A stretch of DNA of 64,000 nt from Candidatus Harrisonbacteria bacterium CG10_big_fil_rev_8_21_14_0_10_49_15 (GCA_002773415.1 PFBD01000020.1:25667-89666), one strand, 5' to 3'; positions 47,116 through 64,000 are shown, counted from the stretch's first letter. A program made the numbers and translations. The notes: a model not told the origin generated them from the letters alone.

Positions 47116-47124
47116 TTCACTGAT

Positions 47125-48318: not shown

Positions 48319-48690
48319 ATGCGAAGACACAAGAAACAACAAGTAGTTACCAAAAAGCGGACCGTTCGGACACGAGCTCGTATTTTGGGCACTTCAACTC
48401 GTCCGCGATTGTCTATATTCCGGAGCAATAAAGGATTGTATGTTCAGCTTATTGACGATGCTAGTGGCAAGACAGTTGTTTCAAGTTCTGTCCGAGACGC
48501 GGCTGCGGCTCCAAAGGGTATGGATTTAACACCTGGCCGAGCAAGGGCATTTGAATTAGGCAAACAGATTGCTGATAAGGCTGTAAAGGCTGGGGTGTCT
48601 GAAGTTGTTTTTGACAGGGGTAGCTATCGTTATCATGGTAGAGTGCAGTCATTTGCGGATGGCGCGCGTGATGGAGGCTTAAAATTCTAG
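48319..48690 (+). CDS. rplR: 50S ribosomal protein L18
   Basis: Conserved L18. Confidence 0.9.
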   Translation: MRRHKKQQVVTKKRTVRTRARILGTSTRPRLSIFRSNKGLYVQLIDDASGKTVVSSSVRDAAAAPKGMDLTPGRARAFELGKQIADKAVKAGVSEVVFDRGSYRYHGRVQSFADGARDGGLKF

Positions 48691-48703
48691 GTAATGACTG
48701 AAT

Positions 48704-49342
48704 ATGGAAAATAATAACAAACAACAGGGCGGGCAGGGATCGGTTAAGACCAAGACCGCTGAAGGAGTAAAGACTACGTTTCGCGGTGGGGCTCCAACTG
48801 GACCTCGAGGACGTCGGCCGGGGGGGGCACGTGGCAAAAAGCCATTTGTGCGAGCGAAGCAGGAGTTTAAAGAAAAAGTTATTGACCTGCGGCGCGTGAC
48901 TCGAGTTATGGCTGGTGGTAAGCGTTTTCGTTTCCGAACTACGATCATTATTGGTGATGAGCGCGGTCGGGTTGGCGTTGGTACCGGTAAAGGTGTAGAT
49001 GTTGTTCAGTCTATTGGAAAAGCCAAGAATGACGCAAAGAAGAACATGATTAAGGTTTCGCTAGAAAAGAACACTATCCCGCACGAGGTGGAGGCAAAGT
49101 TTTCGGCAGCGAGGGTTTTGTTGAAGCCTGCGAAGGAGGGGAATGGTTTGGTTGCCGGAGGCGCTGTGCGAACAGTTTTGACTTTAGCCGGCGTGAAAGA
49201 TATCACGGCAAAGTGTCTTGGTGGAACTACAAATAAGTTAACAAATGCATGGGCGACGATTGAGGCACTGAAGCGAATAAAACCAAAGACCGCGCGTGTT
49301 AAGTTCAGTAATAGATGGAAGCCAGAAGTGGAAAGTGAATAA
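48704..49342 (+). CDS. rpsE: 30S ribosomal protein S5 (with a Gly/Arg-rich N-terminal extension)
   Basis: S5 dsRBD and C-terminal domain. Confidence 0.95.
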   Translation: MENNNKQQGGQGSVKTKTAEGVKTTFRGGAPTGPRGRRPGGARGKKPFVRAKQEFKEKVIDLRRVTRVMAGGKRFRFRTTIIIGDERGRVGVGTGKGVDVVQSIGKAKNDAKKNMIKVSLEKNTIPHEVEAKFSAARVLLKPAKEGNGLVAGGAVRTVLTLAGVKDITAKCLGGTTNKLTNAWATIEALKRIKPKTARVKFSNRWKPEVESE

Positions 49343-49350
49343 TTTTACAT

Positions 49351-49770
49351 ATGCAACTGCACGAACTAAAACCAAAAAATAAAAGGATTGCCAAGCAGAC
49401 CAGGATCGGGCGTGGTGGTAAGCGTGGTACCACTTCCGGTCGCGGTCAGAAGGGACAGCGGGCTCGTTCCGGTCACCGGATTCGTCCGGCGGTGCGGGAT
49501 CTGTTGCAGCGCTTGCCAAAGTTGCGTGGATACAGCAACAACCCGAAATCCGCCTCTTTCCAGGTTCTTAATGTTGGCGATTTGAATCGTTTGGCGGGAT
49601 CAGAGATCTCTTTAAAGACTTTAGCCGAGGCTAGTTTGATTCGTGGAAAAAAGCCGGTGAAGATCTTGGGTTCGGGCGTTATCGACCGAAAGATGACTGT
49701 TACAGGTATTGTCGTTTCAAAGACAGCCAAGGAGAAGATTGAGGCCGCCGGCGGTACAGTCTCCGAATAA
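49351..49770 (+). CDS. rplO: 50S ribosomal protein L15
   Basis: Conserved L15. It follows rpsE by 8 nt, so there is no L30 gene. Confidence 0.9.
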   Translation: MQLHELKPKNKRIAKQTRIGRGGKRGTTSGRGQKGQRARSGHRIRPAVRDLLQRLPKLRGYSNNPKSASFQVLNVGDLNRLAGSEISLKTLAEASLIRGKKPVKILGSGVIDRKMTVTGIVVSKTAKEKIEAAGGTVSE

Positions 49771-49858
49771 CGAATTATAAATCGAATCAGCGAATGTAAA
49801 ATAAAGTGATGGATAAGGATTCGATGATTCGTTAATCTATTCGATATTCGCAAACAAT

Positions 49859-51136
49859 ATGATTGGAAATTTTTTCAAAGCATTCACTGTACCGGAGATT
49901 CGGAACAAGATCTTGGCGATCGCTGGCTTGATTATTGGTTTTCGGCTTTTGGCGACTATCCCGATTCCCGGCGTTGACCTTGCCAGCTTGCAACAGCTTT
50001 TTGGTTCTAATCAGTTACTGGGCTTTTTGAACTTATTTTCCGGTGGTGGTTTGAGTAATCTTTCCATCATGATGCTTGGTGTTGGTCCGTACATTACGGC
50101 GACGATTATCATGCAGCTGCTGACGATGATCAGCCCGCGAATAAAAGAGATTTATTATGAGTCTGGCGCGGCTGGCCGGGCTAAGTTTAACCAGATCTCT
50201 CGGTACCTAACCGTTCCTTTGGCAGCCTTGCAGGGATTTGGTTTTTTGAACTTACTGCGTAGCCAGGGCGTGCTGCCGGAGATGACCGCCATTGGCCTGA
50301 TTGAGAACATCGTCATTATTACCGCCGGTTCGCTTGTTTTGACCTGGATTGGTGAGCTTATCAGTGAATATAAAATAGGTAATGGTATTTCTATAATCAT
50401 TTTCGCGGGTATTGTCGCCGCCTTGCCGGGAACAGTTCGGAATTTGTTCGCGACTTATTCTCCGGAGCTTTTGCAGACGTACATTGTCTTCGCCTTGCTG
50501 GCGGTGGTTATTATTGCCGGTGTGGTCTTTGTTTCCGAGGGTGAGCGTAAAGTGCCGGTGACATATGCGAAACGAGTTAGAGGTAACAAAGTCTATGGGG
50601 GTGCGACCAGCTATCTGCCACTGAAGGTGAACCAGGCCGGTGTTATCCCGATTATCTTTGCTATCTCGATACTGCTCTTCCCGCAGTTTGTGGCTCAAAT
50701 AGCTGCTTTGTTTTCTCCAGACTTGTCACTTACGCTTCAAAACTGGGTAAATATTGTTTTCAATAACCAGATCATTTACATTCTTTTTTACTTTTTGCTT
50801 GTGGTTGTGTTCACTTACTTTTACACCGCGATCACTTTCAATCCGGAAGAGATCTCAAAGAGCTTGCAGCAGAGTGGCGGATTTGTGCCGGGTATTCGGC
50901 CGGGTCAGCCAACGACCGACTTTTTGAAGAGTACGACCGGCAGGATAACTCTTTTTGGCGCTATTTTCTTGGGTGTTGTCGCGGTTTTGCCGAACATTGT
51001 TCAGCTCTTTACCGGCGTTCAGGCTTTTGCTCTTGGCGGCACCGCGCTTTTGATCGTGGTTGCTGTGGCGCTGGAAATAGCTCGGCAGATATCTTCCCAG
51101 CTTACGGTTCGGGAGTATGAGGGGATTGGGTATTAG
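49859..51136 (+). CDS. secY: Preprotein translocase subunit SecY
   Basis: 10 TM helices and SecY signature regions. Confidence 0.95.
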   Translation: MIGNFFKAFTVPEIRNKILAIAGLIIGFRLLATIPIPGVDLASLQQLFGSNQLLGFLNLFSGGGLSNLSIMMLGVGPYITATIIMQLLTMISPRIKEIYYESGAAGRAKFNQISRYLTVPLAALQGFGFLNLLRSQGVLPEMTAIGLIENIVIITAGSLVLTWIGELISEYKIGNGISIIIFAGIVAALPGTVRNLFATYSPELLQTYIVFALLAVVIIAGVVFVSEGERKVPVTYAKRVRGNKVYGGATSYLPLKVNQAGVIPIIFAISILLFPQFVAQIAALFSPDLSLTLQNWVNIVFNNQIIYILFYFLLVVVFTYFYTAITFNPEEISKSLQQSGGFVPGIRPGQPTTDFLKSTTGRITLFGAIFLGVVAVLPNIVQLFTGVQAFALGGTALLIVVAVALEIARQISSQLTVREYEGIGY

Positions 51137-51276
51137 AAACTAGAAACTAGAAACAAGCGGAAGATGGAAAAAGGAAGAATGAAGGAGGAAGGAGGAAGGA
51201 GGAACTGGAAACCTAGATTAAAAATGGCTCACACGGTAAAAATGACCATGTGAGCCGTTTTTGGTATAATGAAAGT

Positions 51277-52404
51277 ATGCAATTTCTTAAGGATATTCAG
51301 GAGGAGCTGGCCGGCAAGACGGTTCTTTTGAGGACCGACCTAAACGCTGAGTCTGCGGAGGATTCTTTTAAGATTGAAAAATCTATTGGGACCCTGCGTT
51401 TTTTGTTGGAACGGGGGGCGAAGGTGGTGGTGATGAGCCATCGTGGCCGGCCTACTGAGGACCAGGTTTCTCCGAGGCGACCTGAAAATATCCCGGAAGA
51501 ATTTAGTTTGCGGTTTGTACTGCCTTTTTTAGAAGAGCATTTGAAAGTAGTTCCCAAGTTTTTACCGGATTTTGATTTTGGGGCGCATAAGCAGTCTGTC
51601 GCCGCGGTGCCAGCCGGGTCTTTGTTTGTTTTAGAGAACGTCCGTCTGCATTCGGGAGAGAACTCTGGTGACCTTGAGTATGCCAAGCAGATGGCGAGCT
51701 TGGGAGATATTTACGTTAATGACGCTTTTGGTTCTTGGCATCCGGGTGCTAGTGTCACGGAGCTGCCAAAGCTTTTACCGGCATATGCGGGCTTGCTGAT
51801 GGAGGCGGAGCTGGAGCATTTGAATCATGTTATGGATGGCGCGCCAACGCCGCGAATAGTTATTTTAGGCGGTGGAAAGGCGGCGGATAAGTTCTCGGTC
51901 ATCAAAAATCTGTATGACCGCACGGACGCCTTTTTAATTGGTGGTATTTTAGCCAACACGTTTTTAAAAGCTCGGGGTATGGATGTTGGTAGTTCTGTGA
52001 TTGATGAAGAGATAGTAGAGCAGGTGAATAGTTTTTCATCTGACGCGAAAATAATTCTGCCGATTGATTTTATAAAAGATGCTGAAGGTAAGATATTGGA
52101 TATTGGCCCAGAGAGCCGAAAATTATTTAGTGAGCATGTCGCGGTCAGCAAGACGGTTATTTGGAACGGTCCGTTAGGTTACTTTGAGGATCCGGCCTTC
52201 CGGGCGGGTTCAGAGCGGATAGCAAAGGTGATCGCGGATACGAGTAATTGTGCCGTTGTTGGCGGCGGTGAGACTACGCAGCTTATCTTAGAGATGGGCA
52301 TGAGTAATGCCTTTACCTGGCTTTCGACGGGCGGCGGTGCTATGCTGGCGTTTCTAGCCGGAAAACGTTTAGCTGGGTTGGAGGCCCTTGGATATTATGA
52401 ATAA
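51277..52404 (+). CDS. pgk: Phosphoglycerate kinase (leaderless start overlapping a TATAAT box)
   Basis: PGK N- and C-domains and the GGGA.L motif. ATG lies right after tggtataatgaaagt. Confidence 0.85.
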   Translation: MQFLKDIQEELAGKTVLLRTDLNAESAEDSFKIEKSIGTLRFLLERGAKVVVMSHRGRPTEDQVSPRRPENIPEEFSLRFVLPFLEEHLKVVPKFLPDFDFGAHKQSVAAVPAGSLFVLENVRLHSGENSGDLEYAKQMASLGDIYVNDAFGSWHPGASVTELPKLLPAYAGLLMEAELEHLNHVMDGAPTPRIVILGGGKAADKFSVIKNLYDRTDAFLIGGILANTFLKARGMDVGSSVIDEEIVEQVNSFSSDAKIILPIDFIKDAEGKILDIGPESRKLFSEHVAVSKTVIWNGPLGYFEDPAFRAGSERIAKVIADTSNCAVVGGGETTQLILEMGMSNAFTWLSTGGGAMLAFLAGKRLAGLEALGYYE

Positions 52405-52458
52405 GTTTTGGAGGTTTTATCTTAGGTAAATTAGAACAATTAGTATAATTAGAAATTC

Positions 52459-53055
52459 TTGGATATGGACACCGATAATGTAATGAGTACAGAGGACGTA
52501 AAGCAGTTTTTTGTTCAGGATGCTGATTTGGTTGTCGTTGATACTGAGTTTACGAGTTTGGAATTTATGAAGAGCGAGCTTGTGGAGATTGGTTTAGTGA
52601 AGCTTAAGGCGAAGACTTACGAGGTTATTGGCGAGGAGGATATTAAAATAAAGCCGACGAGGATTGAAACTGCTTCGCCGAAGTCGCTGGAAATAATTGG
52701 CTATTCGCAGGAAGAGTGGGATCGGGATGGTGTATCGCTAACTGAAGGCTTGCAGCGATTTTTGAACTATACTGACCAATGCATGCTGGTGGCGCATAAC
52801 CTACCGGCGGACTGGATGGTCTTGCGGCGCGCATTTGAAGAGGTGGGGCTGAAAGAGAATTTTTACTATAAGGGTTTAGATACTTTTTCGTTGGCGTTTG
52901 CGAAGTTGGGCGGAGTCAGTAGCTCCACGGGGTTTGAGCGTTACTCGCTTGGAGAGTTGGCAAAACACTTTGGAGTTGACGAAGGGCAGAAGCACCGGGC
53001 AATAGATGACGCCAGGGCGACAGCGGAGATATTTAAGAAGTTAATGGCACTATGA
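52459..53055 (+). CDS. DEDDh 3'-5' exonuclease (DnaQ-like)
   Basis: Exo I VVDTEFT, Exo II AHN, Exo III H....DA. Confidence 0.75.
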   Translation: MDMDTDNVMSTEDVKQFFVQDADLVVVDTEFTSLEFMKSELVEIGLVKLKAKTYEVIGEEDIKIKPTRIETASPKSLEIIGYSQEEWDRDGVSLTEGLQRFLNYTDQCMLVAHNLPADWMVLRRAFEEVGLKENFYYKGLDTFSLAFAKLGGVSSSTGFERYSLGELAKHFGVDEGQKHRAIDDARATAEIFKKLMAL

Positions 53056-53465
53056 GTAATAAGTTAATTATTTACACGGACGGGGGGTCGCGTGGCAATC
53101 CCGGTCCGGCGGCGGCTGGCTGGGTTATTGATGGCAAGGGGTATGGAGCATATCTTGGCACAGAGACGAATAACATCGCGGAGTACACGGCCATTGTGCT
53201 GGCGCTGGAGAAGGCGAGGGCACTGCTTGGAAAAACAAAGGCAAAAGCGACAGAGGTAGAGATGCGGATGGATAGCGAGTTGGCTGTGAAGCAGTTAAAT
53301 GGAGAGTATCGAATAAAGAACGAGGGGATTCAACCGCTGTTCTTTAAGATCTGGAACCTGAAGTTTGATTTTAAATCGGTTGAGTTTGTACATGTGCGTC
53401 GCGAGCTAAACAAAGAAGCGGATGCGATGGTGAATAAGGCGTTGGATGAGAAATTAGGAAATTAG
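53052..53465 (+). CDS. rnhA: Ribonuclease HI
   Basis: IYTDGGSRGNPGPAAAGWV, NNIAEYTAIVLALE. Confidence 0.85.
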   Translation: MSNKLIIYTDGGSRGNPGPAAAGWVIDGKGYGAYLGTETNNIAEYTAIVLALEKARALLGKTKAKATEVEMRMDSELAVKQLNGEYRIKNEGIQPLFFKIWNLKFDFKSVEFVHVRRELNKEADAMVNKALDEKLGN

Positions 53466-53484
53466 GAAATTGGGAAATTGAACC

Positions 53485-53508
53485 AAAAAAGGCCCGAAGG
53501 CCTTTTTT
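53485..53508. terminator. Bidirectional terminator (aaaaaaggcccgaaggcctttttt)
   Basis: Perfect stem with A/T runs on both sides. Confidence 0.7.
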
Positions 53509-53510
53509 GG

Positions 53511-53912
53511 TTGGTAGCGATAAGCCGGATTCTGTTACCCAGCCCCACTTTTTCAATGAATTTTTACCATTCATTGAAAAAGTGGGGCTGGGTGACAGCG
53601 ATTTATCTAGGTCAGTAATTACTTACTGACTCAAGCGACTCTTCCACGATCTTGCGATCGGGACGCGGTCTTGCACCCCGTAAGAATTTAGCCGTTTCAC
53701 CCCAGCTTTTCTATCTCTATAGCTGGATTAGACCTTTTGGCCTGAGATTAGGTCTTCTTTGGCTTTCGCCTCAGACGTCACTGCTCGCATCTCTTGGTTG
53801 CCCATGGCGGCTGTTAGCCGCTACGTTTTTGACCCCGGCAAAAGCCGGAGAAATGGAGTCCGGACTTTCCTCCCCTTGGTTTTATCCAAAGAGTAGCTGT
53901 CCTGCTACCGAA
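53511..53912 (-). ncRNA. rnpB: RNase P RNA (bacterial type A), ~400 nt
   Basis: Minus strand contains GGGAGGAAAGUCCGGACUCC (P4 5' strand), GGGGUGAAACGGC, and ACAGAAUCCGGCUUAUCGCUACC (P4 3' strand) pairing with the 5' GGUAGC (P1). It overlaps the spurious ORF 53652..53993. Confidence 0.8.
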
Positions 53913-54140
53913 GGCAATTATACCAGCATTTTTATTTTTTGCAATTGTCTATATTTGACCACATGTGCAATAGCCTGGGCACGGATTTCTTGACACGTTT
54001 GCCGACTTATTAAGAACACATGAAGAAGGCATTGACAAGACCACTAGACAATGCTAGGTTGATTGTTGCCTGGTTTTCTGGGCGTTTCTGATTTTTTTCT
54101 TTGGTTTTTCCGCCCTGGTGGCGGAGGAAGGAGCGGTGCG

Positions 54141-55073
54141 ATGAGCACTCGCTTTCTCGCCGCCTTGATGGCGGTTCTGGCTCTGGCTGCGATTAGCGTG
54201 GCTGGGCAGAGGATTCGGGCGGAGATCGAACTCCGGAATCCGAACGGGGCGGACTTGATCTTCAAGGTCGTCGTCGTGAACGCAGAGGATGGAAATGCCA
54301 AGCGAAAGCTGGCCAAGACTCGCATTCGCGGCGAGGGCGAGACTGAGCTCCGTCTTCGGGGCCGCGACTACTCCGAGAATTCTCGGCTTGTCGCCAAGGT
54401 TTCGGTGCGGCGCCGTGGTAAGTACTGGGATGCAGAGCTCGGGGAGATGCGTCGGCGGAACTGGTGGCCGGTCGCTGAGGCGGCGGTCCACGCTACCAAC
54501 GAAACCGGATCTGAGAGGATCCGATTCGTGATGGACATCCCTCTGCTTACGCAGATGCCGTTTGCCGATTTCGACGGCGACGGCGTGGCGGACGAAGACG
54601 ATGCCTGCCCGACTGAAGCCGGACCGGCCTCGAACCAGGGCTGCCCGGTGGACGATCCGGAGCCGAATCCGGCTCGTTCCGGCATCGTCTTGCACAACAT
54701 GACGACCGCCGGCACCATCTGGAACACGCCTGACGGGAGCAATCCCGCACGGTGTTTCCAGATAACGGAGGCCGGACACCCCGGTGTTCGGTGGACCTTC
54801 CGGCTGACCTCCGTCTCGGAGTTGCTGCCGGAGGACCTGACCTCGACGGATTCTCGTCGATGGCCGGTCCTGTTCAGCGAACAATCCCTTCGGGGGGCGA
54901 TGGGGGCGACGTTCCCGTCGTCCACTTCGTACCGGGAGATTTTCCGGCCGGAGAGCCCTCTTCTCTGGGAGTTCCAGGCCTTCGGCACCGATGTCGGTGA
55001 CGGGTGGAGCAACCTGGACTTCCACTGGGAGGAAGACACAGAGAAGTGGCTGCTGCACATCTACGTGCGGTAG
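54141..55073 (+). CDS. GC-rich secreted protein with a thrombospondin-type-3/OmpA-like Ca-binding motif
   Basis: SD ggaggaaggag, signal peptide MSTRFLAALMAVLALAAISVAG, then DFDGDGVADEDDACP. About 65% GC. Confidence 0.6.
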   Translation: MSTRFLAALMAVLALAAISVAGQRIRAEIELRNPNGADLIFKVVVVNAEDGNAKRKLAKTRIRGEGETELRLRGRDYSENSRLVAKVSVRRRGKYWDAELGEMRRRNWWPVAEAAVHATNETGSERIRFVMDIPLLTQMPFADFDGDGVADEDDACPTEAGPASNQGCPVDDPEPNPARSGIVLHNMTTAGTIWNTPDGSNPARCFQITEAGHPGVRWTFRLTSVSELLPEDLTSTDSRRWPVLFSEQSLRGAMGATFPSSTSYREIFRPESPLLWEFQAFGTDVGDGWSNLDFHWEEDTEKWLLHIYVR

Positions 55074-55160
55074 CCAGAGGTCTGCTTGAGCCTTGGCTCG
55101 GGCGGACAGCATGAGAGGGTCGGCAAGTTGCTCACGCGCTTGCCGGCCCCCTCGGAAACA

Positions 55161-55189
55161 TTGACAATTTTTAAAAAATATTCTATACT
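55161..55189 (+). promoter_or_regulatory. Sigma-70-like promoter TTGACA-17-TATACT for the surface-protein gene
   Basis: Read directly. Confidence 0.55.
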
Positions 55190-55198
55190 TAATTTAAC

Positions 55199-57118
55199 TT
55201 GAAAAATATGAAAATGAAATTCAAAAAACTTTTTGCATTTTCTTTGGCGCTGGCGATGGTTTTCCAGTATGCGCCGGCTTTGGCGGCTTATAATACCGGC
55301 ACCGGTTCTGCGGTTGATACCAGTTATAATACTGGCTCCGGTACTCAGAACACTACCTATAACACCGGCAGTGGTTCTTCGGTAACCGATTCTAGCTATA
55401 ATGTCGGCTCCGGTTCTGCTGTGAGTTCGAGTTATAACACTGGTAGTGGCTCTGCTGTTCAGGATGATTCTACCTATAACACTGGCAGTGGCTCTGCTGT
55501 TCAGGATGATTCTACCTATAACACTGGCAGTGGCTCTGCTGTAACTACAACCTATAACACCGGTGCTGGTAGCGCGGTTAACTCCGATTATAACACCGGT
55601 ACTGGAACGGAGGTAACGACCAATTACAACACGGGCTCGGGTTCGGCTGTGACTACGACTTACAATACAGGCACCGGTACGGCTATTTATGCTTGTAATG
55701 ATGGTATTGATAACGACGGGGACGGTTTGGTTGATTTAAATGACCCGGGCTGCGTTAGTAGCACTGATACCAGTGAGCAGAATGTGGTTGTGCAAAACAA
55801 TCCGCCTATCTGGAATCAGGTCAGTAACCGGACGGTGAATGTTGGCCAGGGTTTGAACATCAATGTTTCCGCTTTTGATCCGGACGGCGACGCGCTGACT
55901 TACAGCAGTGTTACTTTGCCGGCGAACTCTAGCTTTAACGCAACCACTCGTTTATTTAGTTTTACTCCTTCTAGTGGCCAGGCTGGCAACACCTATCAGG
56001 TTACTCTGCGAGTTAGTGATGGCGTGAACTCGCCGGTGCAGATGAGCTTTACTGTGTTTGTGAATCAAAATCAACAGCCGCCGTTTGATGATAATGACGC
56101 GCCTCTGTGTACGTTTGTGAATAGCCGAACCGTTGACGTGAATGACACGGTAAGTTTCTTTGTGAATGCGTTTGACCCGGATGGCGATAACCTGACCTTT
56201 AGCGTCAGCGACCGGCCGTCTAACTCAAGCCTGAATAGCAGTACCGGATTTTTCAGTTTTTCACCGAGTCGCAGTCAGGAGGGGAATACTTACTTCTTGC
56301 AGTTTACGGCACGGGACCCGGAGGGCTTGAGCTGTACGACCTCTGCTCAGATCAGGGTGTTTGAGGATGATGACGACGATGATTTTGACTTTGATGATGA
56401 CGACCTGGAGTGGCCGTTCTTTAGCACTCAGCGGTTAGATGTTGGGGAGAATTTTGATAGGACTTTTAGGGTGCGTGATCATAACTCCCGTGTTGACTAC
56501 GACGCTTCTAACCTCCCTTCCGGAGCGGATTATGATGATAATGGGCGCTTTGAATGGAGGCCGCGTAGCAACCAAGAGGGTACTTGGTTTATCACCTTCC
56601 GAGCGGAGCGAGACGGCGATAGAGCAACTCGTACGGTGCGCTTTGAAGTTGGCGATGATGACTTTGACGACGATGATGACTTTAATCGCCGACCGGTCTT
56701 TATTTCAAGTCCGCAGACAGCCGCGGTTGTAAATCGGGTTTACCAGTATGACGCGAACGCGTTTGACCAAGATGGAGATACTCTTCGTTACAGTCTGGCC
56801 AGGGCGCCATCTGGTGCATCCATAGATCAGAACACAGGCTTTGTGACTTGGGTGCCGACACTTTCTGATGCTGGTCGGAGTTTCCAGTTCACTGTTCAGG
56901 TGACAGATAGACGGACAAGTCCGGTGGATCAGTCTTTTACAGTCTTTGTGCAGCCGCAGGGGCAGGTCTTGGGTACCAGCGACACACCTGGTTTTCCAAA
57001 CACCGGTGCCGGTGGTTCAGCGATGAACAGAATGCTTTTGCCGCTTAGCCTTGTGGCTGCCTTGAGCGCGCTTGGACTATTCTTGCTTCGCCGGATGAAT
57101 GCTTCGCGAGTACGATAA
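55199..57118 (+). CDS. Cell-surface protein and predicted sortase substrate. Has 11 tandem YNTG(S/T)GSAV-type repeats, a Cys-bracketed Ca-binding Asp-rich module, three cadherin-like/putative-Ig domains, and a C-terminal FPNTGAGG sorting signal with TM and basic tail
   Basis: Signal peptide. Repeats span 55290-55700. DPDGD(A/N)LT(Y/F)S repeats are typical of the putative-Ig domain. C-terminus ..GFPNTGAGGSAMNRMLLPLSLVAALSALGLFLLRRMNASR. Confidence 0.75.
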   Translation: MKNMKMKFKKLFAFSLALAMVFQYAPALAAYNTGTGSAVDTSYNTGSGTQNTTYNTGSGSSVTDSSYNVGSGSAVSSSYNTGSGSAVQDDSTYNTGSGSAVQDDSTYNTGSGSAVTTTYNTGAGSAVNSDYNTGTGTEVTTNYNTGSGSAVTTTYNTGTGTAIYACNDGIDNDGDGLVDLNDPGCVSSTDTSEQNVVVQNNPPIWNQVSNRTVNVGQGLNINVSAFDPDGDALTYSSVTLPANSSFNATTRLFSFTPSSGQAGNTYQVTLRVSDGVNSPVQMSFTVFVNQNQQPPFDDNDAPLCTFVNSRTVDVNDTVSFFVNAFDPDGDNLTFSVSDRPSNSSLNSSTGFFSFSPSRSQEGNTYFLQFTARDPEGLSCTTSAQIRVFEDDDDDDFDFDDDDLEWPFFSTQRLDVGENFDRTFRVRDHNSRVDYDASNLPSGADYDDNGRFEWRPRSNQEGTWFITFRAERDGDRATRTVRFEVGDDDFDDDDDFNRRPVFISSPQTAAVVNRVYQYDANAFDQDGDTLRYSLARAPSGASIDQNTGFVTWVPTLSDAGRSFQFTVQVTDRRTSPVDQSFTVFVQPQGQVLGTSDTPGFPNTGAGGSAMNRMLLPLSLVAALSALGLFLLRRMNASRVR

Positions 57119-57134
57119 GTTTAATAATCTTATT

Positions 57135-57809
57135 ATGCAAACGACAGGACCGCAAAAATTCGTTGCCGGCTGTACCTTAGTATTAGCCATGGGCGGCGTA
57201 GCACTGGCGATAGTGTATCTTTCACTGCTACTAACTTCGCCGCGAGAGAGCGAGGCTCAAGACCTTAGCGCTTTGACTGTTTCTAACAGAGTGGCATTTG
57301 CAAAGATGCTGGAGCGATCTGGGACAGCGACTAGGTTTCCTGTCTCAGCCGTTCTTGTTGATCCGGTACAGATTGTTATTCCGGCTTTAGGAGTTGATAC
57401 GAAGATCCAGGCGGTTGGTTTGACCGCCTCAGGTAAGATGGGTACCCCGAAGGGGGACCGGAAGTACAAAGACGTAGCCTGGTATAAAGATGGCTTTAAA
57501 CCGGGCGAGAAGGGAGCCGCAGTCATTGCCGGCCACTTAGACAATGGTTATGGGCTTGCGGCTGTGTTTAAAGAGTTGCAGAGTCTGAAGCTCGGTGACT
57601 CTATATTTGTTTCTGATGCTGACGGTAAGACGCTGCATTTTAAGGTGAGTAAAAAGGTTTTGTATCCGGCAGGTAATGAGCCGGTGAGTGATGTGTTTGG
57701 GGAGAGTGATGAACCGCGCTTGAATTTGATAACTTGTGATGGTGATTGGATAGAGAATGAGAGGGGGTACAGTCAGAGACTAGTGGTGTATACAGAGCTA
57801 GTTCGGTAG
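57135..57809 (+). CDS. Sortase-family transpeptidase
   Basis: N-terminal TM segment, catalytic His region (AVIAGHLD), LITCDG (Cys), downstream Arg. Confidence 0.75.
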   Translation: MQTTGPQKFVAGCTLVLAMGGVALAIVYLSLLLTSPRESEAQDLSALTVSNRVAFAKMLERSGTATRFPVSAVLVDPVQIVIPALGVDTKIQAVGLTASGKMGTPKGDRKYKDVAWYKDGFKPGEKGAAVIAGHLDNGYGLAAVFKELQSLKLGDSIFVSDADGKTLHFKVSKKVLYPAGNEPVSDVFGESDEPRLNLITCDGDWIENERGYSQRLVVYTELVR

Positions 57810-57836
57810 GCGTTTTTGTGAGTGGAAAAAAGGAAT

Positions 57837-57865
57837 TCGCGCTCTATTGACAGAGTGTTTTTTGT
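57837..57865 (+). promoter_or_regulatory. Consensus promoter TTGACA-17-TATAAT
   Basis: Read directly. Confidence 0.6.
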
Positions 57866-57882
57866 ATGCTATAATTTAACTT

Positions 57883-58860
57883 ATGAACGATAAAAAACTA
57901 GCTACATATCGAGTTTTGCGCGTGCTTGGGGCCGGTTTTTTGGCTCTAGGACTGGTTTTTATTGAGATCCCGACTACAGAGGCGGCTTTGCGCACAGTTT
58001 CTTTTGATTCGTATGCTGCTCGGGAAAGGGCACAGTCGCAGAGAAACAGCTCTTTTAATGATTACTACAGTGGCTCTGGATATAGCTATTACTACGGGCC
58101 GAATTATCAGCCTTTGCCGGTAGTGGACTTTGCGAGCACACGCCCGCCGACTATCGTACGTCAGACAAAGACCGTAGCTTTCGCGGATGCATTTAGCCGG
58201 GATGCTGATGAAAGTGACTCGTCTTCTGGTTCTGTGGCTGGTATTTCTGAATCTTCGTTTGTTGTATCTGACATAAAGATAGATGCCAGTTTGGCGACTA
58301 TTCGAGCGGCCGGTGAAGCCGGGACTGAGATCTGTGGGATTCAGGTAACTTGGAGAACAGATGAGCCGACTGCCGGCCAGGTGCTCTACGGTACTAAGTC
58401 GCAGGCGGATCTTAGCTTGGAAGAGATGAGCTACCCTTTCTCTGTTCAAACCAGTCCGAGTTTTAGTCGGGTGCATGGAGTAACTTTTGACTGTCTGCAA
58501 AACCAGACCTATTACTTTCGGATTGTTGCTTTGAGCCAGATAGATAGGGCTGTGAGCGACGAACGGATTTTGGTTCCGTTTACACCAGAGGCCGGAGTTG
58601 CCGCCGCGGTTGACTCTGACGAGGTAGATACGGACAGGGATGGCGCTTCGGTGCTTGGAACGATTGGTCGCTTTGGTATTCCGATTGCGTTTATTATCTT
58701 CTTGATCGTTATTGGTTATTATGTGGTTCGGTGGATCCGCGGTCAGATGGGCGGCGGTGAAAGAGTTCTTTTGAGTAGAGGCGAGGCAGACGCGGAAGAA
58801 CCGCTTTTGAACATTCCCGGTTTGCCTAAGAACGGTGATGATTTAGAAGAAAGTAATTAG
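57883..58860 (+). CDS. Secreted protein with a C-terminal TM anchor
   Basis: Signal peptide and C-terminal IPIAFIIFLIVIGYYVV. Confidence 0.6.
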   Translation: MNDKKLATYRVLRVLGAGFLALGLVFIEIPTTEAALRTVSFDSYAARERAQSQRNSSFNDYYSGSGYSYYYGPNYQPLPVVDFASTRPPTIVRQTKTVAFADAFSRDADESDSSSGSVAGISESSFVVSDIKIDASLATIRAAGEAGTEICGIQVTWRTDEPTAGQVLYGTKSQADLSLEEMSYPFSVQTSPSFSRVHGVTFDCLQNQTYYFRIVALSQIDRAVSDERILVPFTPEAGVAAAVDSDEVDTDRDGASVLGTIGRFGIPIAFIIFLIVIGYYVVRWIRGQMGGGERVLLSRGEADAEEPLLNIPGLPKNGDDLEESN

Positions 58861-58922
58861 CAGGTAGCTAGTAACAAAATCTCCGTAAGTACGGAGATTT
58901 TGTGCTATGATTCCCAGGTATT

Positions 58923-59651
58923 ATGAATATGAGCAATGAACAGTTCCCGATGAGGATAAATAAGTATTTGGCCCATAAGGGTATTTGTACTCGTCGTCAG
59001 GCTGATGATTGGATCGCACAAGGCCGGGTGATGGTGGGTGGCGAGCCGGCGGTCATTGGTCAGCAGATTCAAGCTGAGGATGAGGTGGTTGTGCGCTCAA
59101 AAGATCTGGCAAAAGCCGCTTCTGATAGAGTGTATTTTGCATTCAATAAGCCGATTGGCTTGGCAACGGAAGATGTTTTAGAAAAGTTGGTACCGACTCT
59201 GCCTAAAAAAGCCAAAGACGTATTTCCGGTCGGCCGCTTGGACAAAGTGTCGCATGGCCTACTTGTTTTAACTAATGACGGGAGGGTGACCGATCGATTG
59301 TTGAATCCAAAATATGTGCATGACAAGGAGTACGTTGTCCGGACTGATAAACCGATTACGCAGAATTTTTTGACTCGGATGGGTAAGGGTGTGAAGTTAG
59401 AGGATGGCTATATTACAAAGACGGCGATGCTGGCCGGTGAAGTTGGCGCCAAGCGCTTTTCTATTATATTGACTGAGGGGCGGAAGCATCAGATCCGACG
59501 TATGTGTACTGTTCTTGGCTTTGCGGTTAAGGACTTGCGCCGAGTGCGGGTGATGAACTTAAAGCTCTCCGGATTGGAGCCGGGTGAGTATCGGGAGGTT
59601 ATTGGTAAAGAACTGAAGGTATTTTTGAAGTCGCTGGGGATGGTTAAGTAG
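58923..59651 (+). CDS. RsuA/RluB-family pseudouridine synthase (S4 domain + PsuS)
   Basis: S4 motif. GRLDKVSHGLLVLTNDG (catalytic Asp). Confidence 0.8.
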   Translation: MNMSNEQFPMRINKYLAHKGICTRRQADDWIAQGRVMVGGEPAVIGQQIQAEDEVVVRSKDLAKAASDRVYFAFNKPIGLATEDVLEKLVPTLPKKAKDVFPVGRLDKVSHGLLVLTNDGRVTDRLLNPKYVHDKEYVVRTDKPITQNFLTRMGKGVKLEDGYITKTAMLAGEVGAKRFSIILTEGRKHQIRRMCTVLGFAVKDLRRVRVMNLKLSGLEPGEYREVIGKELKVFLKSLGMVK

Positions 59652-59762
59652 TATTAGCTTATTAGCTTATTAGCTTCTTAGCTGTTTAGGGAAATGGGTC
59701 ACGGCCCAAAACAGCCTGTTTAGCCGCGGCAGTAGCTAATCAGCTAGCCTTCTTTTCTTTGT

Positions 59763-60233
59763 TTAAACTATGGCACGGTCACTTCTGTTTTGAACCCAGA
59801 GGTATGAGCTCAGAATGAAGAGGGTCGTGCTGGTGAGTGCGGAATACATACACCACTCACAGATGGCTTTGAGAAGCACGAGCTGAACAAATACAAACCA
59901 AGCGGAGAAAAGGAAGCCAAAAATAGTGAGTAGCGCGGCGATGTTAAAGAGGCGGGGGTTGCGTCGGTCCAGGTATGCTAGAGAGAGGATGAAGACGGCC
60001 AGATAGTAGATTGCGCCGCCAAGGGCGACCGGAATGCCGAATATTTGCGAATAGGCGCTAGTCGTCACGGCTTCGCAGCCGCTGGCGATATTGCACGGCG
60101 GAACAGAGCCCCGGAAGTGTTCTATAGTCAGGAAGCCGGCGTCAATAAAGCCAATGAAGCTTAAAACAAGGAAGGCGATGACGATGCCGTTAGGAATTCT
60201 GGTCAGTTGTGGTAGTCGCATTGTCGTTGTCAC
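59763..60233 (-). CDS. Vitamin K epoxide reductase (VKOR) family membrane protein
   Basis: Loop cysteines CNIASGC and active-site CEWC in a TM helix. Confidence 0.7.
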   Translation of the reverse strand: MTTTMRLPQLTRIPNGIVIAFLVLSFIGFIDAGFLTIEHFRGSVPPCNIASGCEAVTTSAYSQIFGIPVALGGAIYYLAVFILSLAYLDRRNPRLFNIAALLTIFGFLFSAWFVFVQLVLLKAICEWCMYSALTSTTLFILSSYLWVQNRSDRAIV

Positions 60234-60981
60234 TGTTATTTTCCTTAATTATCTGCAGGGCGCCGTCTATTAGAAGTTTGAAGGTGTCGAGGCTGCGCGG
60301 GTTGCTTATTTGTTGACCATTGATAAAGAAGGTTGGTGTGCCGGTTATTCTGGCGCGCTGGCCGCTGTTTATGTCAGTGGCAACCTTGTTGCGTACTGCT
60401 TCTGATTCGTAGTCAGAGGTGAACTGAGTGGTGTCTAGGCCAAGGGATTCGGCATATTCGGTGAAAAGGTCCTCAGCTCTTGGGTTAGTGGCCCATTTGT
60501 TTTGATTAGCAAAAATCAGGTCGTGCATTTCCCAAAACTTTCCTTGTTGACCTGCCGCCTCGCTTGCCCAGGCAGCCGGGCGGGCGTTTGGGTGAATGGA
60601 CATGAGTGGGAAGTGACGATAGACAAAGGCGATGCGGTCGCCGTATATATCGGCCAGCTCTTCAACTATGGGCGCGTAAAAAGCGCAGGCCGGGCATTGA
60701 AAATCGCTGTACTCAACAAGTAGTAGTTGGGCATCGCGATTACCTTTGACCTGATCTTGTTCATTAATAGCGTCTGTGAGCGCGTTATTCGGGGTTTGGG
60801 AATTGCCACCTGAGAGCATGGCGATGGCGACGATGGCGCCAATGATAACAATAATGCCCATAGTCCAGATAAGCACACTCTTGCTCTTGCGTGCGGTACG
60901 GGCACTATCGCGGGACTGCTCTTTGCTGGCTTTTTGTTGGTCGTACTGCTCTTTTTTTGAAAGTTGTTCGTTGTTGTCCAT
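60190..60981 (-). CDS. DsbA-like thiol:disulfide oxidoreductase (membrane-anchored)
   Basis: Thioredoxin fold, active site CPAC. Confidence 0.8.
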   Translation of the reverse strand: MDNNEQLSKKEQYDQQKASKEQSRDSARTARKSKSVLIWTMGIIVIIGAIVAIAMLSGGNSQTPNNALTDAINEQDQVKGNRDAQLLLVEYSDFQCPACAFYAPIVEELADIYGDRIAFVYRHFPLMSIHPNARPAAWASEAAGQQGKFWEMHDLIFANQNKWATNPRAEDLFTEYAESLGLDTTQFTSDYESEAVRNKVATDINSGQRARITGTPTFFINGQQISNPRSLDTFKLLIDGALQIIKENNSDNDNATTTTDQNS

Positions 60982-61057
60982 ATTTTTTATAGCTTTATTA
61001 CTATTAATTATGCCGGGATTATAGCAGTTTTGGTCTGATTTTGCTATCCTGTAAGGA

Positions 61058-61414
61058 ATGAGGTTATTGAGAAAAGTGAGTCATCCACTGCGTGGGATTA
61101 TGGCTACTACTAAGCGTGATCTGAGTTTTCGTTTGGAAATTTTTGGTGGTTTTTTGCTTGTGCTTATTTTGGGTTGGCTTTGGCCGGTCAGTCAGGTGGA
61201 GCTCTTTGCGATTTTAATTACTTACGGGCTGGTGCTTGTTGCAGAGTTGACTAATACAGCTCTGGAAGCAGCGCTTGATAAACTGCATCCGGAACAGCAT
61301 GAGTCTATTCGAATAAGTAAAGACGCCGCGGCCGGAGCGGTTTTGATAGCTGTTTGCTTGAACGTGACCGTAGTGGCACTAGTTATTTTGGCGCGTTTCG
61401 GTGTGAGCCAATAA
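61058..61414 (+). CDS. dgkA: Diacylglycerol kinase (DgkA family)
   Basis: VAELTNTALEAALD and three TM helices. Confidence 0.8.
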   Translation: MRLLRKVSHPLRGIMATTKRDLSFRLEIFGGFLLVLILGWLWPVSQVELFAILITYGLVLVAELTNTALEAALDKLHPEQHESIRISKDAAAGAVLIAVCLNVTVVALVILARFGVSQ

Positions 61415-61447
61415 AAATAGCTCAAAGTGAATTTTTTTTCATTTAAT

Positions 61448-61473
61448 AAAAAAATGGGCGGCCGCCCATTTTT
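61448..61473. terminator. Bidirectional terminator (aaaaaatgggcggccgcccatttttt)
   Basis: Perfect palindrome with A/T runs. Confidence 0.7.
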
Positions 61474-61573
61474 TAATTAAATGAGAATTTAAGTGATATG
61501 TCGATCTTTGAGAAACCTACGACGAGGCTGCGTGCGACGAGGCTGAACCTCGTAACTTTCGTTTCGGGGTTGT

Positions 61574-61692
61574 TTAGTGTTTGACTGGATGGCTGGGCAT
61601 GACGAGAGCCGCTAAAATGTAGATAATAATACTGGGAACGACTCCGGTGAAGACGAGGATGAAGATCCAGATGACGCGTAGTAGCGTTGGGT
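61574..61692 (-). CDS. Unannotated PspC-domain micro-protein (39 aa)
   Basis: SD aggtgg, then MNVDPTLLRVIWIFILVFTGVVPSIIIYILAALVMPSHPVKH (DPTL.R..F.L.....G...Y...W...P pattern). Confidence 0.55.
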
Positions 61693-61720
61693 CTACGTTC
61701 ATGTATTCGGCTAAGCCACC

Positions 61721-62000
61721 TAAGACCCTGGGTTGCGATATTCGCGCGACGCGTTCTTAGCCAGCTTCGTCAAGCGCAAGGCTTGCCGAGCGAGCGGTAG
61801 CCTGTGTGCTACCGCGACTGAGGCATAACGCCGCGATTGGCGAAGCTGGCCAGAACCATTCGGGATACGGCAAATTGCTTCAGGAGCTTCGTTGCTTCGT
61901 CCTCGGAGTATCACAACAGGATACACCTTCGGACTCGCGCCTTGCTCCTGAAGCAATTTACCAGTATCGCGACCGGCGAATATCGCAACTCAGGGTCTAG
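61721..62000 (-). ncRNA. Candidate structured GC-rich RNA / long 5' leader (~280 nt). It has a closing stem that pairs its two ends and at least five internal helices
   Basis: Pairings: 61726-61746 with 61972-61992; 61764-61773 with 61836-61845; 61870-61888 with 61940-61958 (19 bp); hairpins gcggtagc..gctaccgc and gcaagg..cttgc. A TATAAT box (rc) lies at ~62012-62017. Confidence 0.4.
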
Positions 62001-62081
62001 ACTCCAGCGAAGAATTTATTATAGTTGCTTTTATATAAACGTTTCATGGTTTTAGTTTAGCTCAGGTGTATTAAATTTTCA

Positions 62082-62834
62082 TTAAATCTGAATCTTCTTA
62101 AAAAGCCAGCTACCAATAATGAGTAGGACGAGCGTGACTCCGGCAACTACTGTTAGGTCTAGCCAGATGGGGTGCTCGGCTGAGCCGACCAGGCCGCCGC
62201 GGATGGCGTCTACGCCATAGCTGAACGGGTTGAGTTTGGTGATAAGCTCTAAGGCAGGGGGAATATTGGTTAGTGGAAAAAGCGCGCCGGAGAGGAAGAA
62301 AATAGGGAACATGACAAAGTTGATGATGAGAGGAAAGGCAGAGGTGTCTTGCATGTGACTGGCAATAACCAGTCCCATGGCCGCGAACAGTAAGCCGATG
62401 AGCGCGGCCGCTGTAAGGGCGATGAGCGCGCCGCCAAGAGTAACCTGGGAGATATCAAAGCCGATGAAGATAGCCAAAAAGAAAACAATGATACCTTGAA
62501 AAACGGCGACTGTGGCTCCGCCGAGTGCTTTGCCGAGCATGATATAAAAACGAGGGACGGGCGCGACCAGGGTTTCTTTTAAAAATCCAAACATGCGGTC
62601 GCCGATAAGCTCGATGCCGATAAAAGTAGAAGTGAAGAGGATGGTCATGCCCACGATGCCGGGTACGAGGAAAGAGATGTAGTCGGTAATACCGCTTTGT
62701 TCAACGGTCGGGCCTAGACCATAGCCGAGAGCGATTAGAAAAAGCAGTGGCTGCCCAACAGCGCCCACGATACGGGCTTTATTGCGAAAGTATTTTTTTA
62801 TTTGGCGGAGCCAGAGAATGTATAAGGCGGACAT
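62082..62834 (-). CDS. ABC-2 family transporter permease
   Basis: 6 TM segments, ABC-2 type. Confidence 0.75.
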   Translation of the reverse strand: MSALYILWLRQIKKYFRNKARIVGAVGQPLLFLIALGYGLGPTVEQSGITDYISFLVPGIVGMTILFTSTFIGIELIGDRMFGFLKETLVAPVPRFYIMLGKALGGATVAVFQGIIVFFLAIFIGFDISQVTLGGALIALTAAALIGLLFAAMGLVIASHMQDTSAFPLIINFVMFPIFFLSGALFPLTNIPPALELITKLNPFSYGVDAIRGGLVGSAEHPIWLDLTVVAGVTLVLLIIGSWLFKKIQI

Positions 62835-62912
62835 GGAGAATTTTCAATTTACATTTTTCAATTCCTGCCTGCCGGCAGGCAGGTTCAAACAATTTTCGAA
62901 TTTCCTATTTTT

Positions 62913-63707
62913 CTAAAATCTGCCCATTTTTTTACTACGTTTGATGGAGGCATGGGGGTCGGGTTTTTCTTCGCGGATCTGGTGGCCGGTTAGAGAAATA
63001 AAAGCATCTTGGAGGTTGGAGGTCTTGGTTTGAGCTTTGAGTTCAGTTGGTGTGCCAATGGCAATTATCTTGCCATAGTCAATTACGCCGACGCGGTCGG
63101 CGTAGCGCTCTGCTTCTTCCATGTAGTGGGTCGTGAAGAAGACGGTCATGTTTTCGGTGGTAGATAGTTTTTGGATGTAGTCCCAGATGTAGTTTCGGGT
63201 TTGTGGGTCAAGCCCCAGGGTTGGTTCGTCTAAAAAAAGAATTTTGGGGTGGTGAAGCAGGCCTCGGGCTATCTCCATGCGCCGGCGCATGCCGCCACTG
63301 AATTCTTTAACTAGGCTGTCTTTGCGCTCCCAGAGGTCAACATAGGTAAGCATGTCTTTTATTCGCTTGGTGCGGGTCGGTTTATCTATTCCGTACAATA
63401 CGGCGTGGAACTCCATGTTTTCGTAGCAGGTGAGATCGTCGTCGTGGCTTTGCTCCTGAAAAATAATGCCGAAGTTGTGGCGAACATCGTTGGAGTTAGT
63501 GGCGGGATCGGCTCCGGCGACTAGAACCTCGCCCCCTGTGCGGTGTAGAAGAGTGGTTAGAATCTTGATGGTTGTAGTCTTGCCGGCGCCGTTTGGGCCG
63601 AGAAACGCGAAAATTTCACCGGCGTTCACGTGGAAGGAGGCGTTATCCACGGCGATAAGCTCGCCGTAACTTTTAGTGAGATTAGAAACGGAAATAATTG
63701 TTGGCAT
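62913..63707 (-). CDS. ABC transporter ATP-binding protein
   Basis: Walker A GPNGAGKTT, signature SGGMRRR, Walker B LFLDEPT. Confidence 0.9.
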   Translation of the reverse strand: MPTIISVSNLTKSYGELIAVDNASFHVNAGEIFAFLGPNGAGKTTTIKILTTLLHRTGGEVLVAGADPATNSNDVRHNFGIIFQEQSHDDDLTCYENMEFHAVLYGIDKPTRTKRIKDMLTYVDLWERKDSLVKEFSGGMRRRMEIARGLLHHPKILFLDEPTLGLDPQTRNYIWDYIQKLSTTENMTVFFTTHYMEEAERYADRVGVIDYGKIIAIGTPTELKAQTKTSNLQDAFISLTGHQIREEKPDPHASIKRSKKMGRF

Positions 63708-64000
63708 GGCGCTTAGGGCTCCCGCCTATCAGCGGGTAGGTAGTTTTCAGTGAGTTGAATTATGTTAGTGTACCAGAACGATTGGTGAAAAAACAATGAT
63801 TCGCGGGAGAAATCTTGAGACTTTTTTCGTCTTTACGTGAACTTCATGCGTGATCTGTATAGTTGGGATTGCGAAAGGTCGGTCTGTTTAAAGATCGGTT
63901 TATGCGTATATATGGATGATGCAGAGATAATGATCAAAGACCTTGTCTGTGGCATGGAGATAGCTAAGGGCGGAGCGCCGTCTGCATCGCACATGGGAGA

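Follow-up and report, generated by a model that had tools for sequence, protein, structure and literature searches.

An adhesin-sortase gene pair of Candidatus Harrisonbacteria with an N-terminal repeat array whose likeness to the sorting signal is probably coincidental

Introduction

A stretch of 64,000 nucleotides from the genome of Candidatus Harrisonbacteria bacterium CG10_big_fil_rev_8_21_14_0_10_49_15 (GCA_002773415.1, PFBD01000020.1:25667-89666; hereafter the window) contains, at positions 55199 to 57809, two adjoining plus-strand genes that encode an exported surface protein and a sortase. The surface protein, referred to here as the substrate, ends in a sorting signal with the residues NTG at its core, and its mature N-terminus carries an array of short tandem repeats in which NTG recurs. 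An initial annotation had taken this likeness as mimicry of the sorting motif and had proposed that the repeats could act as additional sortase cleavage or acceptor sites. The analysis described here favours a different view: the two genes probably form an operon of a Parcubacteria-type bacterium of the Candidate Phyla Radiation (CPR) that encodes an adhesin together with its membrane-anchored sortase, and the repeats make up a tail that does not consist of sortase sites.

The substrate and its domains

The substrate gene is an open reading frame (ORF) at 55199-57118 (+) for an exported protein of 639 amino acids, as the initial annotation had it, and its product can be described as a sortase-anchored cadherin-like adhesin. 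In the gene call of a contig that is identical over this gene start, the protein begins at ATG 55208 and not at TTG 55199. One protein with 98-100% identity (P0001) and one orthologue, likewise from Candidatus Harrisonbacteria (P0002), were found. Residues 1-29 (55199-55285, +) read as a Sec signal peptide of the kind that LPXTG-type substrates possess, with a Lys-rich N-region, a hydrophobic core and an A-L-A site at residues 27-29 (...APALA/AYNTG); these parts were recognized by eye, and AlphaFold2 places a helix at residues 3-22.

The C-terminus of the substrate reads GFPNTGAGGSAMNRMLLPLSLVAALSALGLFLLRRMNASRVR and consists, in order, of GFPNTGAGGSAMNRM, LLPLSLVAALSALGLFLL and the tail RRMNASRVR, which is the arrangement given in the initial annotation (FPNTGAGG, then a hydrophobic helix and the tail RRMNASRVR). 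The sorting pentapeptide F599-P-N-T-G603 (56993-57007, +) lies within the extended motif G-F-P-N-T-G-A-G-G and thus has the form hydrophobic-P-x-T-G at the customary distance of about 30-40 residues from the C-terminus. It is followed by a hydrophobic helix (residues 612-630; with the positively charged tail, 57032-57115, +), for which the Kyte-Doolittle mean is 2.31 and AlphaFold2 models a helix at 607-637. No other ORF in the window ends in a sorting signal of this kind. The mature protein (573 residues, 55286-57004) contains 29 Arg and no Lys. Taken with the neighbouring gene, these features of the sequence support the reading of the protein as the substrate of a dedicated sortase, to which it presents a signal of the LPXTG type.

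Directly after the repeats, the acidic segment from Cys166 to Cys185 (CNDGIDNDGDGLVDLNDPGC; 55694-55753, +) forms a module of the thrombospondin type 3 or teneurin C-rich type, in which the two Cys residues bracket DGIDNDGDGLVDLND and the core DxDxDGxxDxxD is present. It matches the NCBIfam model NF033662 (acid_disulf_rpt) at E 3e-8 and 33.2 bits, below the cut-off of 41 bits, and it differs from that family, whose units have two disulfides each, in that only one copy is present and only one Cys pair brackets it. The sole significant match of a PDB sequence search was between this module and the C-rich domain of Teneurin-4 (7PLP, E 5e-4), which binds Ca2+ in the thrombospondin type 3 fashion (PMC9058538). 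The Cys-bracketed, Asp-rich Ca-binding module of the initial annotation is backed by these two matches, the first of them below its cut-off, and Ca binding by the module can be expected from the likeness. The number of acidic Cys modules varies, with one here, four in the orthologue and three in a further Harrisonbacteria strain (L088).

The body of the substrate is made up of four tandem cadherin-like Ig domains (approximately residues 197-290, 299-390, 405-487 and 497-587; 55787-56959, +). Three putative Ig domains had been counted initially, and AlphaFold2 resolves four, each with the strand pattern of a beta-sandwich and a predicted local distance difference test (pLDDT) score of 80-95. 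In Foldseek the domains match cadherin EC1-4 and EC2-5 arrays (E 6e-19), and in Pfam they match He_PIG (86.4 bits, cut-off 24), Big_9 (69.2 bits, cut-off 23.6) and also Cadherin_4. The protein therefore resembles the bacterial cadherin-like, He_PIG (dystroglycan-type) and Big_9 adhesins in its four tandem domains, DPDGD motif and cadherin EC-array fold, but the domains here serve as the stalk of a small sortase-anchored CPR protein and are joined by poly-Asp/Phe linkers. Two such linkers, EDDDDDDFDFDDDDLE and GDDDFDDDDDFN, occupy 56363-56410 and 56651-56686 of the window (residues 389-403 and 485-496); they are not found in the orthologue, whose linkers are Asn/Gly-rich or Pro/Tyr/Thr-rich. 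A second Cys pair, C304 and C379, is situated in domain 2, and both pairs of the protein may form disulfides.

The sortase

The sortase gene (57099-57809, +) encodes 236 amino acids with an N-terminal membrane helix and the residues His146, Cys213 and Arg227. The product matches the Pfam family Sortase PF04203 (peptidase C60) at 75.7 bits against a cut-off of 26.6; the catalytic triad H146, C213 (in LITC) and R227 is invariant in 27 aligned sequences; and the AlphaFold2 model (mean pLDDT 83) consists of a membrane helix (residues 17-45) and a beta-barrel, so that profile, triad, fold and membrane anchor all identify a sortase. An overlap of this gene with the 3′ end of the substrate gene had been described. 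The sortase does adjoin the substrate, although the 20-nt overlap exists only with the longest ORF: ATG 57135 (Met13), at which the three closest orthologues begin, is the probable alternative start and leaves a gap of 16 nt.

Among the NCBIfam class models the best score was obtained with class_F_sortase (NF033748; 133.1 bits, E 6e-39), and as this score is below the cut-off of 166 the enzyme is called class-F-like. Class F sortases, such as SrtF of Propionibacterium acnes, have been reported to use LPXTG; the clade described here differs from them also in its distribution, being found in Patescibacteria and Chloroflexota and not in Actinobacteria. Assignment by structure was tried and set aside, as the Foldseek matches to class C, E, A and D sortases all have E-values of about 1e-9 and do not discriminate. 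The class_C_sortase model scores 26.9 bits against a cut-off of 160, and inspection of the sequence between the membrane helix and the barrel revealed no DP[WFY] lid motif.

A promoter-like site, TTGACA-17 nt-TATACT (55161-55189, +; 11 of 12 consensus positions), precedes the substrate gene, and a terminator-like hairpin (57839-57858) lies beyond the sortase gene, where it overlaps the next promoter (57847-57875, 12 of 12 positions with a TG element; together 57839-57875, +). The substrate and sortase genes would accordingly make up a two-gene unit. Their nearest homologues are found in Candidatus Harrisonbacteria (Parcubacteria, CPR), with 39% identity for the substrate and 47-49% for the sortase, and the two genes are likewise paired at the orthologous loci.

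A sorting signal shared by the sortase clade

An alignment of the sortase was scanned against one genome per species, which yielded 80 loci, mostly from Patescibacteria and Chloroflexota. At 17 of the Patescibacterial loci the sortase is accompanied, usually just upstream, by an ORF that ends in x-P-N-T-G-x-G-G-x-A...N..LL followed by a helix and an R/K tail. The Pro, Thr and Gly of the pentapeptide are invariant at these loci, and position X is occupied by N at 12 of them, by S and by D at two each and by T at one. The pairing of a substrate with a cognate sortase in the adjacent gene is thus encountered in the window, at the orthologous loci and at 17 further Patescibacterial loci. In the Chloroflexota relatives the signal takes the form (M/V/L)P(G/N/Q)TGSDP. 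Judged from these alignments, FPNTGAGG is a variant of LPXTG and the usual signal for this clade of Patescibacterial sortases.

The system shares with the housekeeping sortases that act on LPXTG (Staphylococcus aureus SrtA with protein A; Streptococcus thermophilus PrtS, with LPNTG) the tripartite signal, the signal peptide and a Cys transpeptidase with His, Cys and Arg, and LPNTG is a known SrtA motif in streptococci. It departs from the SrtA and protein A paradigm in several respects. Position 1 is Phe here and loose across the clade (L/I/V/T/F/A), the consensus extends to PNTGxGG-x-A...N, and the substrate gene shares the locus of the sortase in the 17 Patescibacterial cases. Furthermore, none of the curated NCBIfam sorting-domain models fits the signal, the best being GVDTG_CTERM with 16.4 bits, below its cut-off of 29. 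The literature on sortase motifs of CPR bacteria or Patescibacteria yielded passing mentions only.

Many Patescibacteria encode at the sortase locus, usually directly upstream, a tiny protein of about 70-180 amino acids, in which only a low-complexity stretch rich in Ser, Thr and Gly lies between the signal peptide and PNTGxGG (loci L007, L012, L020, L021, L030, L048, L057, L060, L062, L068 and L072). Outside the signal, NTG occurs in the clade substrates 3.0 times per 1000 amino acids where 1.8 would be expected, so that stray NTG in these Ser/Thr/Gly-rich proteins appears at about the expected rate. The Patescibacterial substrates of the clade also nearly avoid Lys: 16 of the 17 others have none, and pooled they contain three Lys and 22 Arg in 2092 amino acids (loci L005-L072). 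Folded substrates of about 300 and 430 mature residues are included in this set. The cognate sortases have 4.8% Lys, and the substrates of related sortases in Chloroflexota and Firmicutes do contain Lys. Avoidance of Lys could be a guard against stray cross-linking by sortases or against Lys-specific proteases.

The repeat array

The array occupies residues 31-165 (55289-55693, +) and consists of 11 units that start at residues 31, 43, 54, 67, 79, 93, 107, 119, 131, 143 and 155. The core of the unit is Y-N-T-G-[S/T/A]-G-[S/T]-A-V, with V in place of T in one unit. The count of 11 given in the initial annotation stands, but the units are 11-14 and not 12-14 amino acids long, and a public contig has only 10 of them. 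That contig (L001; ENA ERZ27293386 k141_346228, 265 kb) is identical to the window over 18.8 kb barring one mismatch and one 42-nt unit; its substrate gene has the 42-nt gap and otherwise no substitution. The difference could be due either to length variation within the population or to collapse of a perfect tandem repeat by the assembler. The indel lies in a near-perfect tandem repeat with a 42-nt unit (55433-55542, +; 2.6 copies, 98% matches), which is the youngest part of the array and the only part that Tandem Repeats Finder detects. One pair of units is a very recent duplication, and copy number differs between the assemblies.

The repeat region is 22% Thr, 18% Ser, 16% Gly and 10% Asn, Ser and Thr together making up 40%, and it is predicted to be disordered, with pLDDT values of about 30 over residues 25-166 in all five AlphaFold2 models. 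A PDB sequence search with the repeats gave matches at chance level only (E about 0.3), and searches of Pfam and NCBIfam gave no family that matches them. HMMER with the repeat region alone returned nothing at E <= 0.01, the near-identical P0001 included, and may be blind to the array, possibly through its composition correction. A degenerate DNA pattern for three consecutive units has three matches in the window and none in 100 shuffles. A metagenome collection was scanned, in place of HMMER, with a degenerate DNA pattern for three YNTxxG units spaced by 12 amino acids. The scan recovered 20 loci. Relatives account for only two of these, both from Harrisonbacteria (L088 and L102); the remaining 18 carry low-complexity Tyr/Asn repeats that are unrelated and in some cases eukaryote-like.

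In the orthologue the repeats read Y-N-T-A-T-G-S-Q and keep the same 12-amino-acid register, so that the part conserved between the two repeat lineages is Y-N-T...G-S and not N-T-G. Position 4 is fixed within each lineage, as Gly in 11 of 11 units here and as Ala in 10 of 10 units of the orthologue. The core is invariant in both lineages despite the use of different synonymous codons, which include four for Thr, three for Gly and both codons for Tyr and for Asn. Constancy across synonymous codons, together with homogenization within each lineage, suggests that the core is under selection at the peptide level with concerted evolution and is not mere debris of replication slippage.

Comparison of the repeats with the sorting signal

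The proposed mimicry was examined with a log-odds profile built from 18 clade signals, that is, those of the 17 sortase-neighbouring ORFs and of the orthologue P0002. The true signal of the substrate scores 34.0 bits against this profile and the best window within the repeats 3.2 bits, a value that is reached in 14.6% of cases when the residues of the repeat region are shuffled, or in 13% when the repeat region provides the background. Pro is invariant in the 18 clade signals, but every repeat lacks it and has Tyr at that position. The string that the repeats and the signal have in common is N-T-G-x-G only, and at the would-be scissile position all 10 orthologue units have Ala in place of Gly. 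Strains of Harrisonbacteria also differ in the signal, FPSTGGG as opposed to FPNTGGG, and have identical YNTATG repeats (L106:3084-5567, L002:3359-5842 and L088).

The claim that the repeats are sortase sites is not supported, in view of the missing Pro, the low profile score and the Ala at position 4 of the orthologue. The initial annotation had asked whether the pairing of repeat and signal recurs in homologues, and had named as evidence against itself the loss of the NTG repeats there and the use of a different motif by the sortase of the lineage. NTG is not conserved in the orthologue, where the repeat is YNTATG, but the sortase of the lineage does use PNTG. The likeness is best explained by the Ser/Thr/Gly/Asn-rich composition of both segments, which share a limited set of small residues, and on present evidence it is a coincidence and not a sign of extra sortase sites.

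Neighbouring genes and other features of the window

The gene order around the pair is conserved: RNase T, RNase H, an exported protein of about 310 amino acids, substrate, sortase, a membrane protein of about 330 amino acids, an RluA-type synthase, VKOR, DsbA and DAGK. The remainder of the window is core chromosome with UvrA/C, EF-G, a ribosomal protein operon and SecY. The upstream neighbour (54141-55073, +) is a conserved exported protein of 310 amino acids, with a thrombospondin-type-3-like motif (weak Pfam TSP_3 match, E 5e-4) and 36% identity over 140 amino acids to its Harrisonbacteria counterpart. The downstream neighbour (57883-58860, +) is a conserved type-I membrane protein of 325 amino acids, with a Tyr/Asn/Ser-rich N-terminal region, an FN3-like domain (weak Pfam match to Pur_ac_phosph_N) and 36% identity over 320 amino acids to its counterpart. 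Its Tyr/Asn/Ser/Gly-rich N-terminal region reads NSSFNDYYSGSGYSYYYGPNY, and that of the orthologue (L002:6742-7737) reads NTYNASYDTAYNSGNNNVYAGQSY; Tyr/Asn-rich exposed segments would thus recur in the gene cluster.

A VKOR gene (59763-60233) and a gene for a DsbA-like thioredoxin (60190-60981) are located on the minus strand (59763-60981) 2.6 kb downstream of the pair (Pfam VKOR 98, Thioredoxin_4 92 and DSBA 82 bits) and are syntenic at the orthologous locus; their products could plausibly oxidise the Cys pairs of the substrate. The window also encodes a second VKOR-domain protein of 349 amino acids (23847-24896, +) and another exported protein (9451-10494, +), which combines a bacterial TSP3 Ca-binding repeat with a membrane helix at its C-terminus. 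Together with the VKOR/DsbA pair, these two genes point to a substantial surface proteome of disulfide-bonded, Ca-binding proteins.

The promoters at 55161-55208 and 57847-57883 are near-perfect sigma-70 promoters that lie very near the start codons. The leader of the substrate gene would be at most about 12 nt long before ATG 55208 and would have no Shine-Dalgarno sequence, and the -10 element of the downstream gene ends 7 nt before ATG 57883, which suggests a leaderless mRNA for that gene. A scan of the window with Rfam at the gathering threshold and a tRNA scan gave no matches. The model of bacterial class A RNase P RNA is nevertheless matched over its full length (53506-53912, minus strand; 86.3 bits, E 1.2e-26, model positions 1-367) by a divergent sequence, which the standard scan missed because its score is below the Rfam gathering value of 100; the region is kept in the Harrisonbacteria loci and accounts for spurious ORFs there. 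The GC skew is strongly positive on the plus strand in every 2-kb bin of positions 1-64000 (+0.07 to +0.37), and the cumulative skew rises monotonically. As this holds over minus-strand genes (59763-60981) as well, it is a property of the strand, and a similar G/C disparity between strands has been reported in some Microgenomates genomes (PMC7143001).

Possible roles of the repeats

It is very unlikely that the repeats are additional recognition sites for the sortase, either cleaved or acting as decoys and pseudo-substrates that modulate anchoring or release fragments. NTGxG is common to the repeats and the clade consensus PNTGxGG, the repeat core is apparently under peptide-level selection, unit 8 agrees with the signal along NTGAG(G)SA(V/M)N, and one clade substrate (L012) has an internal SPSTGGG ahead of its real VPSTGAGG. 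On the other side stand the absence of the invariant Pro, a profile score within reach of shuffled sequence (p about 0.15), the Ala that replaces Gly throughout the orthologue array and the independence of the X residue of the signal from the repeats between strains. The known mechanism argues in the same direction. The acyl-enzyme of a sortase holds the portion of the substrate N-terminal to Thr, and so cleavage within N-terminal repeats would leave no more than a short low-complexity peptide anchored, with the body of the adhesin severed from it. Still less probable is polymerisation, whereby the repeats would supply a nucleophile for pilus-like assembly or for head-to-tail joining through an N-terminal Gly exposed by cleavage. 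The sortase is dedicated and co-transcribed, and class C pilus sortases are among its structural neighbours, if at the same E-value as other classes; yet the class C model scores 26.9 bits, the lid motif is not seen, the operon has no second pilin-like gene, and the mature protein, which does not contain a pilin motif, is free of Lys, by which acceptor chemistry of the pilin type is excluded. The head-to-tail route would need prior cleavage at a site without Pro. The combined proposal, in which Pro-less YNT/G units are processed by the sortase and the exposed N-terminal Gly-Ser-Gly serves as nucleophile for head-to-tail polymerisation or trimming, is extremely improbable, and for sortase action on the repeats in any form we see only a slight chance.

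A glycosylation module, with the repeats mainly O-glycan acceptors on Ser, Thr or Tyr in a mucin-like brush, is doubtful but deserves more weight than any role as sortase sites. In serine-rich repeat adhesins a short Ser-rich stretch precedes the binding region on its N-terminal side, and the substrate, with its predicted disorder, its 40% of Ser and Thr and its regularly spaced Tyr, has a similar layout. Selection on the core at the peptide level is what would be expected of a recognition site for an enzyme. Like the serine-rich repeat adhesins Fap1, GspB and SraP and like the ‘periscope’ proteins, the substrate is LPXTG-anchored with Ser/Thr-rich repeats N-terminal to a folded region, and as in the length-variable ‘periscope’ proteins the repeat copy number differs between near-identical genomes. 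Unlike either group it has its variable block at the distal tip and not in the stalk; unlike the serine-rich repeat adhesins it has no long C-terminal repeat stalk or second repeat region, and its unit is a 12-amino-acid Tyr-Asn-Thr-Gly sequence and not SASx. The neighbours at the locus do not include accessory Sec genes (SecA2/SecY2/Asp), and the genes annotated in the window and at the orthologous loci comprise neither these nor any glycosyltransferase gene, which leaves glycosylation unsupported. N-glycosylation was considered and rejected, since NTG and NTA are not N-x-S/T sequons. The initial annotation had offered a glycosylation or adhesion module as its fallback, of which adhesion is plausible and glycosylation possible. 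A regular beta-rich fibre or solenoid, formed for example upon binding of Ca2+ or of a partner and missed by AlphaFold2 owing to its shallow alignment, is unlikely. The 12-amino-acid period is strict, Tyr and Gly positions are invariant, position 9 is a conserved hydrophobic residue, and just three sequences inform the model. Nevertheless, pLDDT is about 30 in five of five models, no solved structure and no Pfam or NCBIfam family is matched, and unit length varies from 11 to 14 amino acids, a variation that solenoids tolerate poorly.

A repeat block at the N-terminus of a rod that is anchored by its C-terminus lies at the distal tip. The best reading is that the repeats may provide a flexible, multivalent distal contact or a length-variable module. 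Several points weigh against this reading and against the wider view of the operon. In the region of the repeats, the disorder prediction draws on just three aligned sequences. Both the adhesive function of the array and the attachment of the substrate to the wall by the neighbouring sortase are links that we infer, the latter from the sequences of the two genes. No glycosyltransferase that could modify the tail was encountered among the annotated genes (the larger ORFs of 26-37552 and 54063-60981, and the gene table of the contig L001 for 45208-64000). Unit 8, YNTGAGSAVN, resembles the signal PNTGAGGSAMN over about nine residues if one gap is allowed, and the two agree at 14 of 15 core nucleotides. 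Class E sortases take Ala for Pro at position 2, so Pro is not a universal requirement. Finally, the repeats occur in two lineages only, and the test of co-variation with the signal has very low power. An origin of the repeats from duplicated sorting-signal DNA was rejected, as the codons differ in the ten remaining units and no such likeness exists in the orthologue, and for these reasons the identity over 14 of 15 nucleotides is treated as a coincidence.

A model for the surface protein and its significance

The preferred reading, an adhesin-sortase operon with a tail that is not made of sortase sites, can be set out as a sequence of steps. The substrate would be exported by Sec and its signal peptide cut after Ala29. 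Its two Cys pairs would then be oxidised, probably by the nearby VKOR/DsbA, and the acidic module would bind Ca2+. The C-terminal helix and basic tail would retain the protein in the membrane until the sortase cuts FPNT/G and transfers Thr602 to peptidoglycan. The four cadherin-like domains would form a rod whose far N-terminal end bears a flexible tail of about 135 residues with 10-11 Tyr-Asn-Thr-Gly-Ser-Gly-Ser-Ala-Val units. In this tail, evenly spaced Tyr ‘stickers’ within a spacer of Ser, Thr, Gly and Asn, perhaps O-glycosylated, may touch the surface of a host or substrate. As a more tentative suggestion, which we consider possible and likelier than the processing of Pro-less units by the sortase, the Y-N-T-x-[S/T]-G dodecapeptide array could be a new functional module of CPR adhesins, maintained by selection as a glycan acceptor or host contact; with the same reserve, the module would belong to a sortase system that is distinguished by the extended PNTGxGG signal and Lys-free substrates.

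Mimicry of the sorting motif, if true, would provide a new route by which sortases trim or polymerise surface proteins, and the evidence makes it unlikely. The locus would instead be an example of how an ultrasmall bacterium of the episymbiotic type may build a cadherin-like adhesin that is anchored to the wall, stiffened by Ca and tipped with a variable segment of low complexity. For annotation of the surface proteomes of Patescibacteria, it draws attention to the dedicated pairing of sortase and substrate, to an extended PNTGxGG signal that is so far uncurated and to the near-total avoidance of Lys in the substrates.

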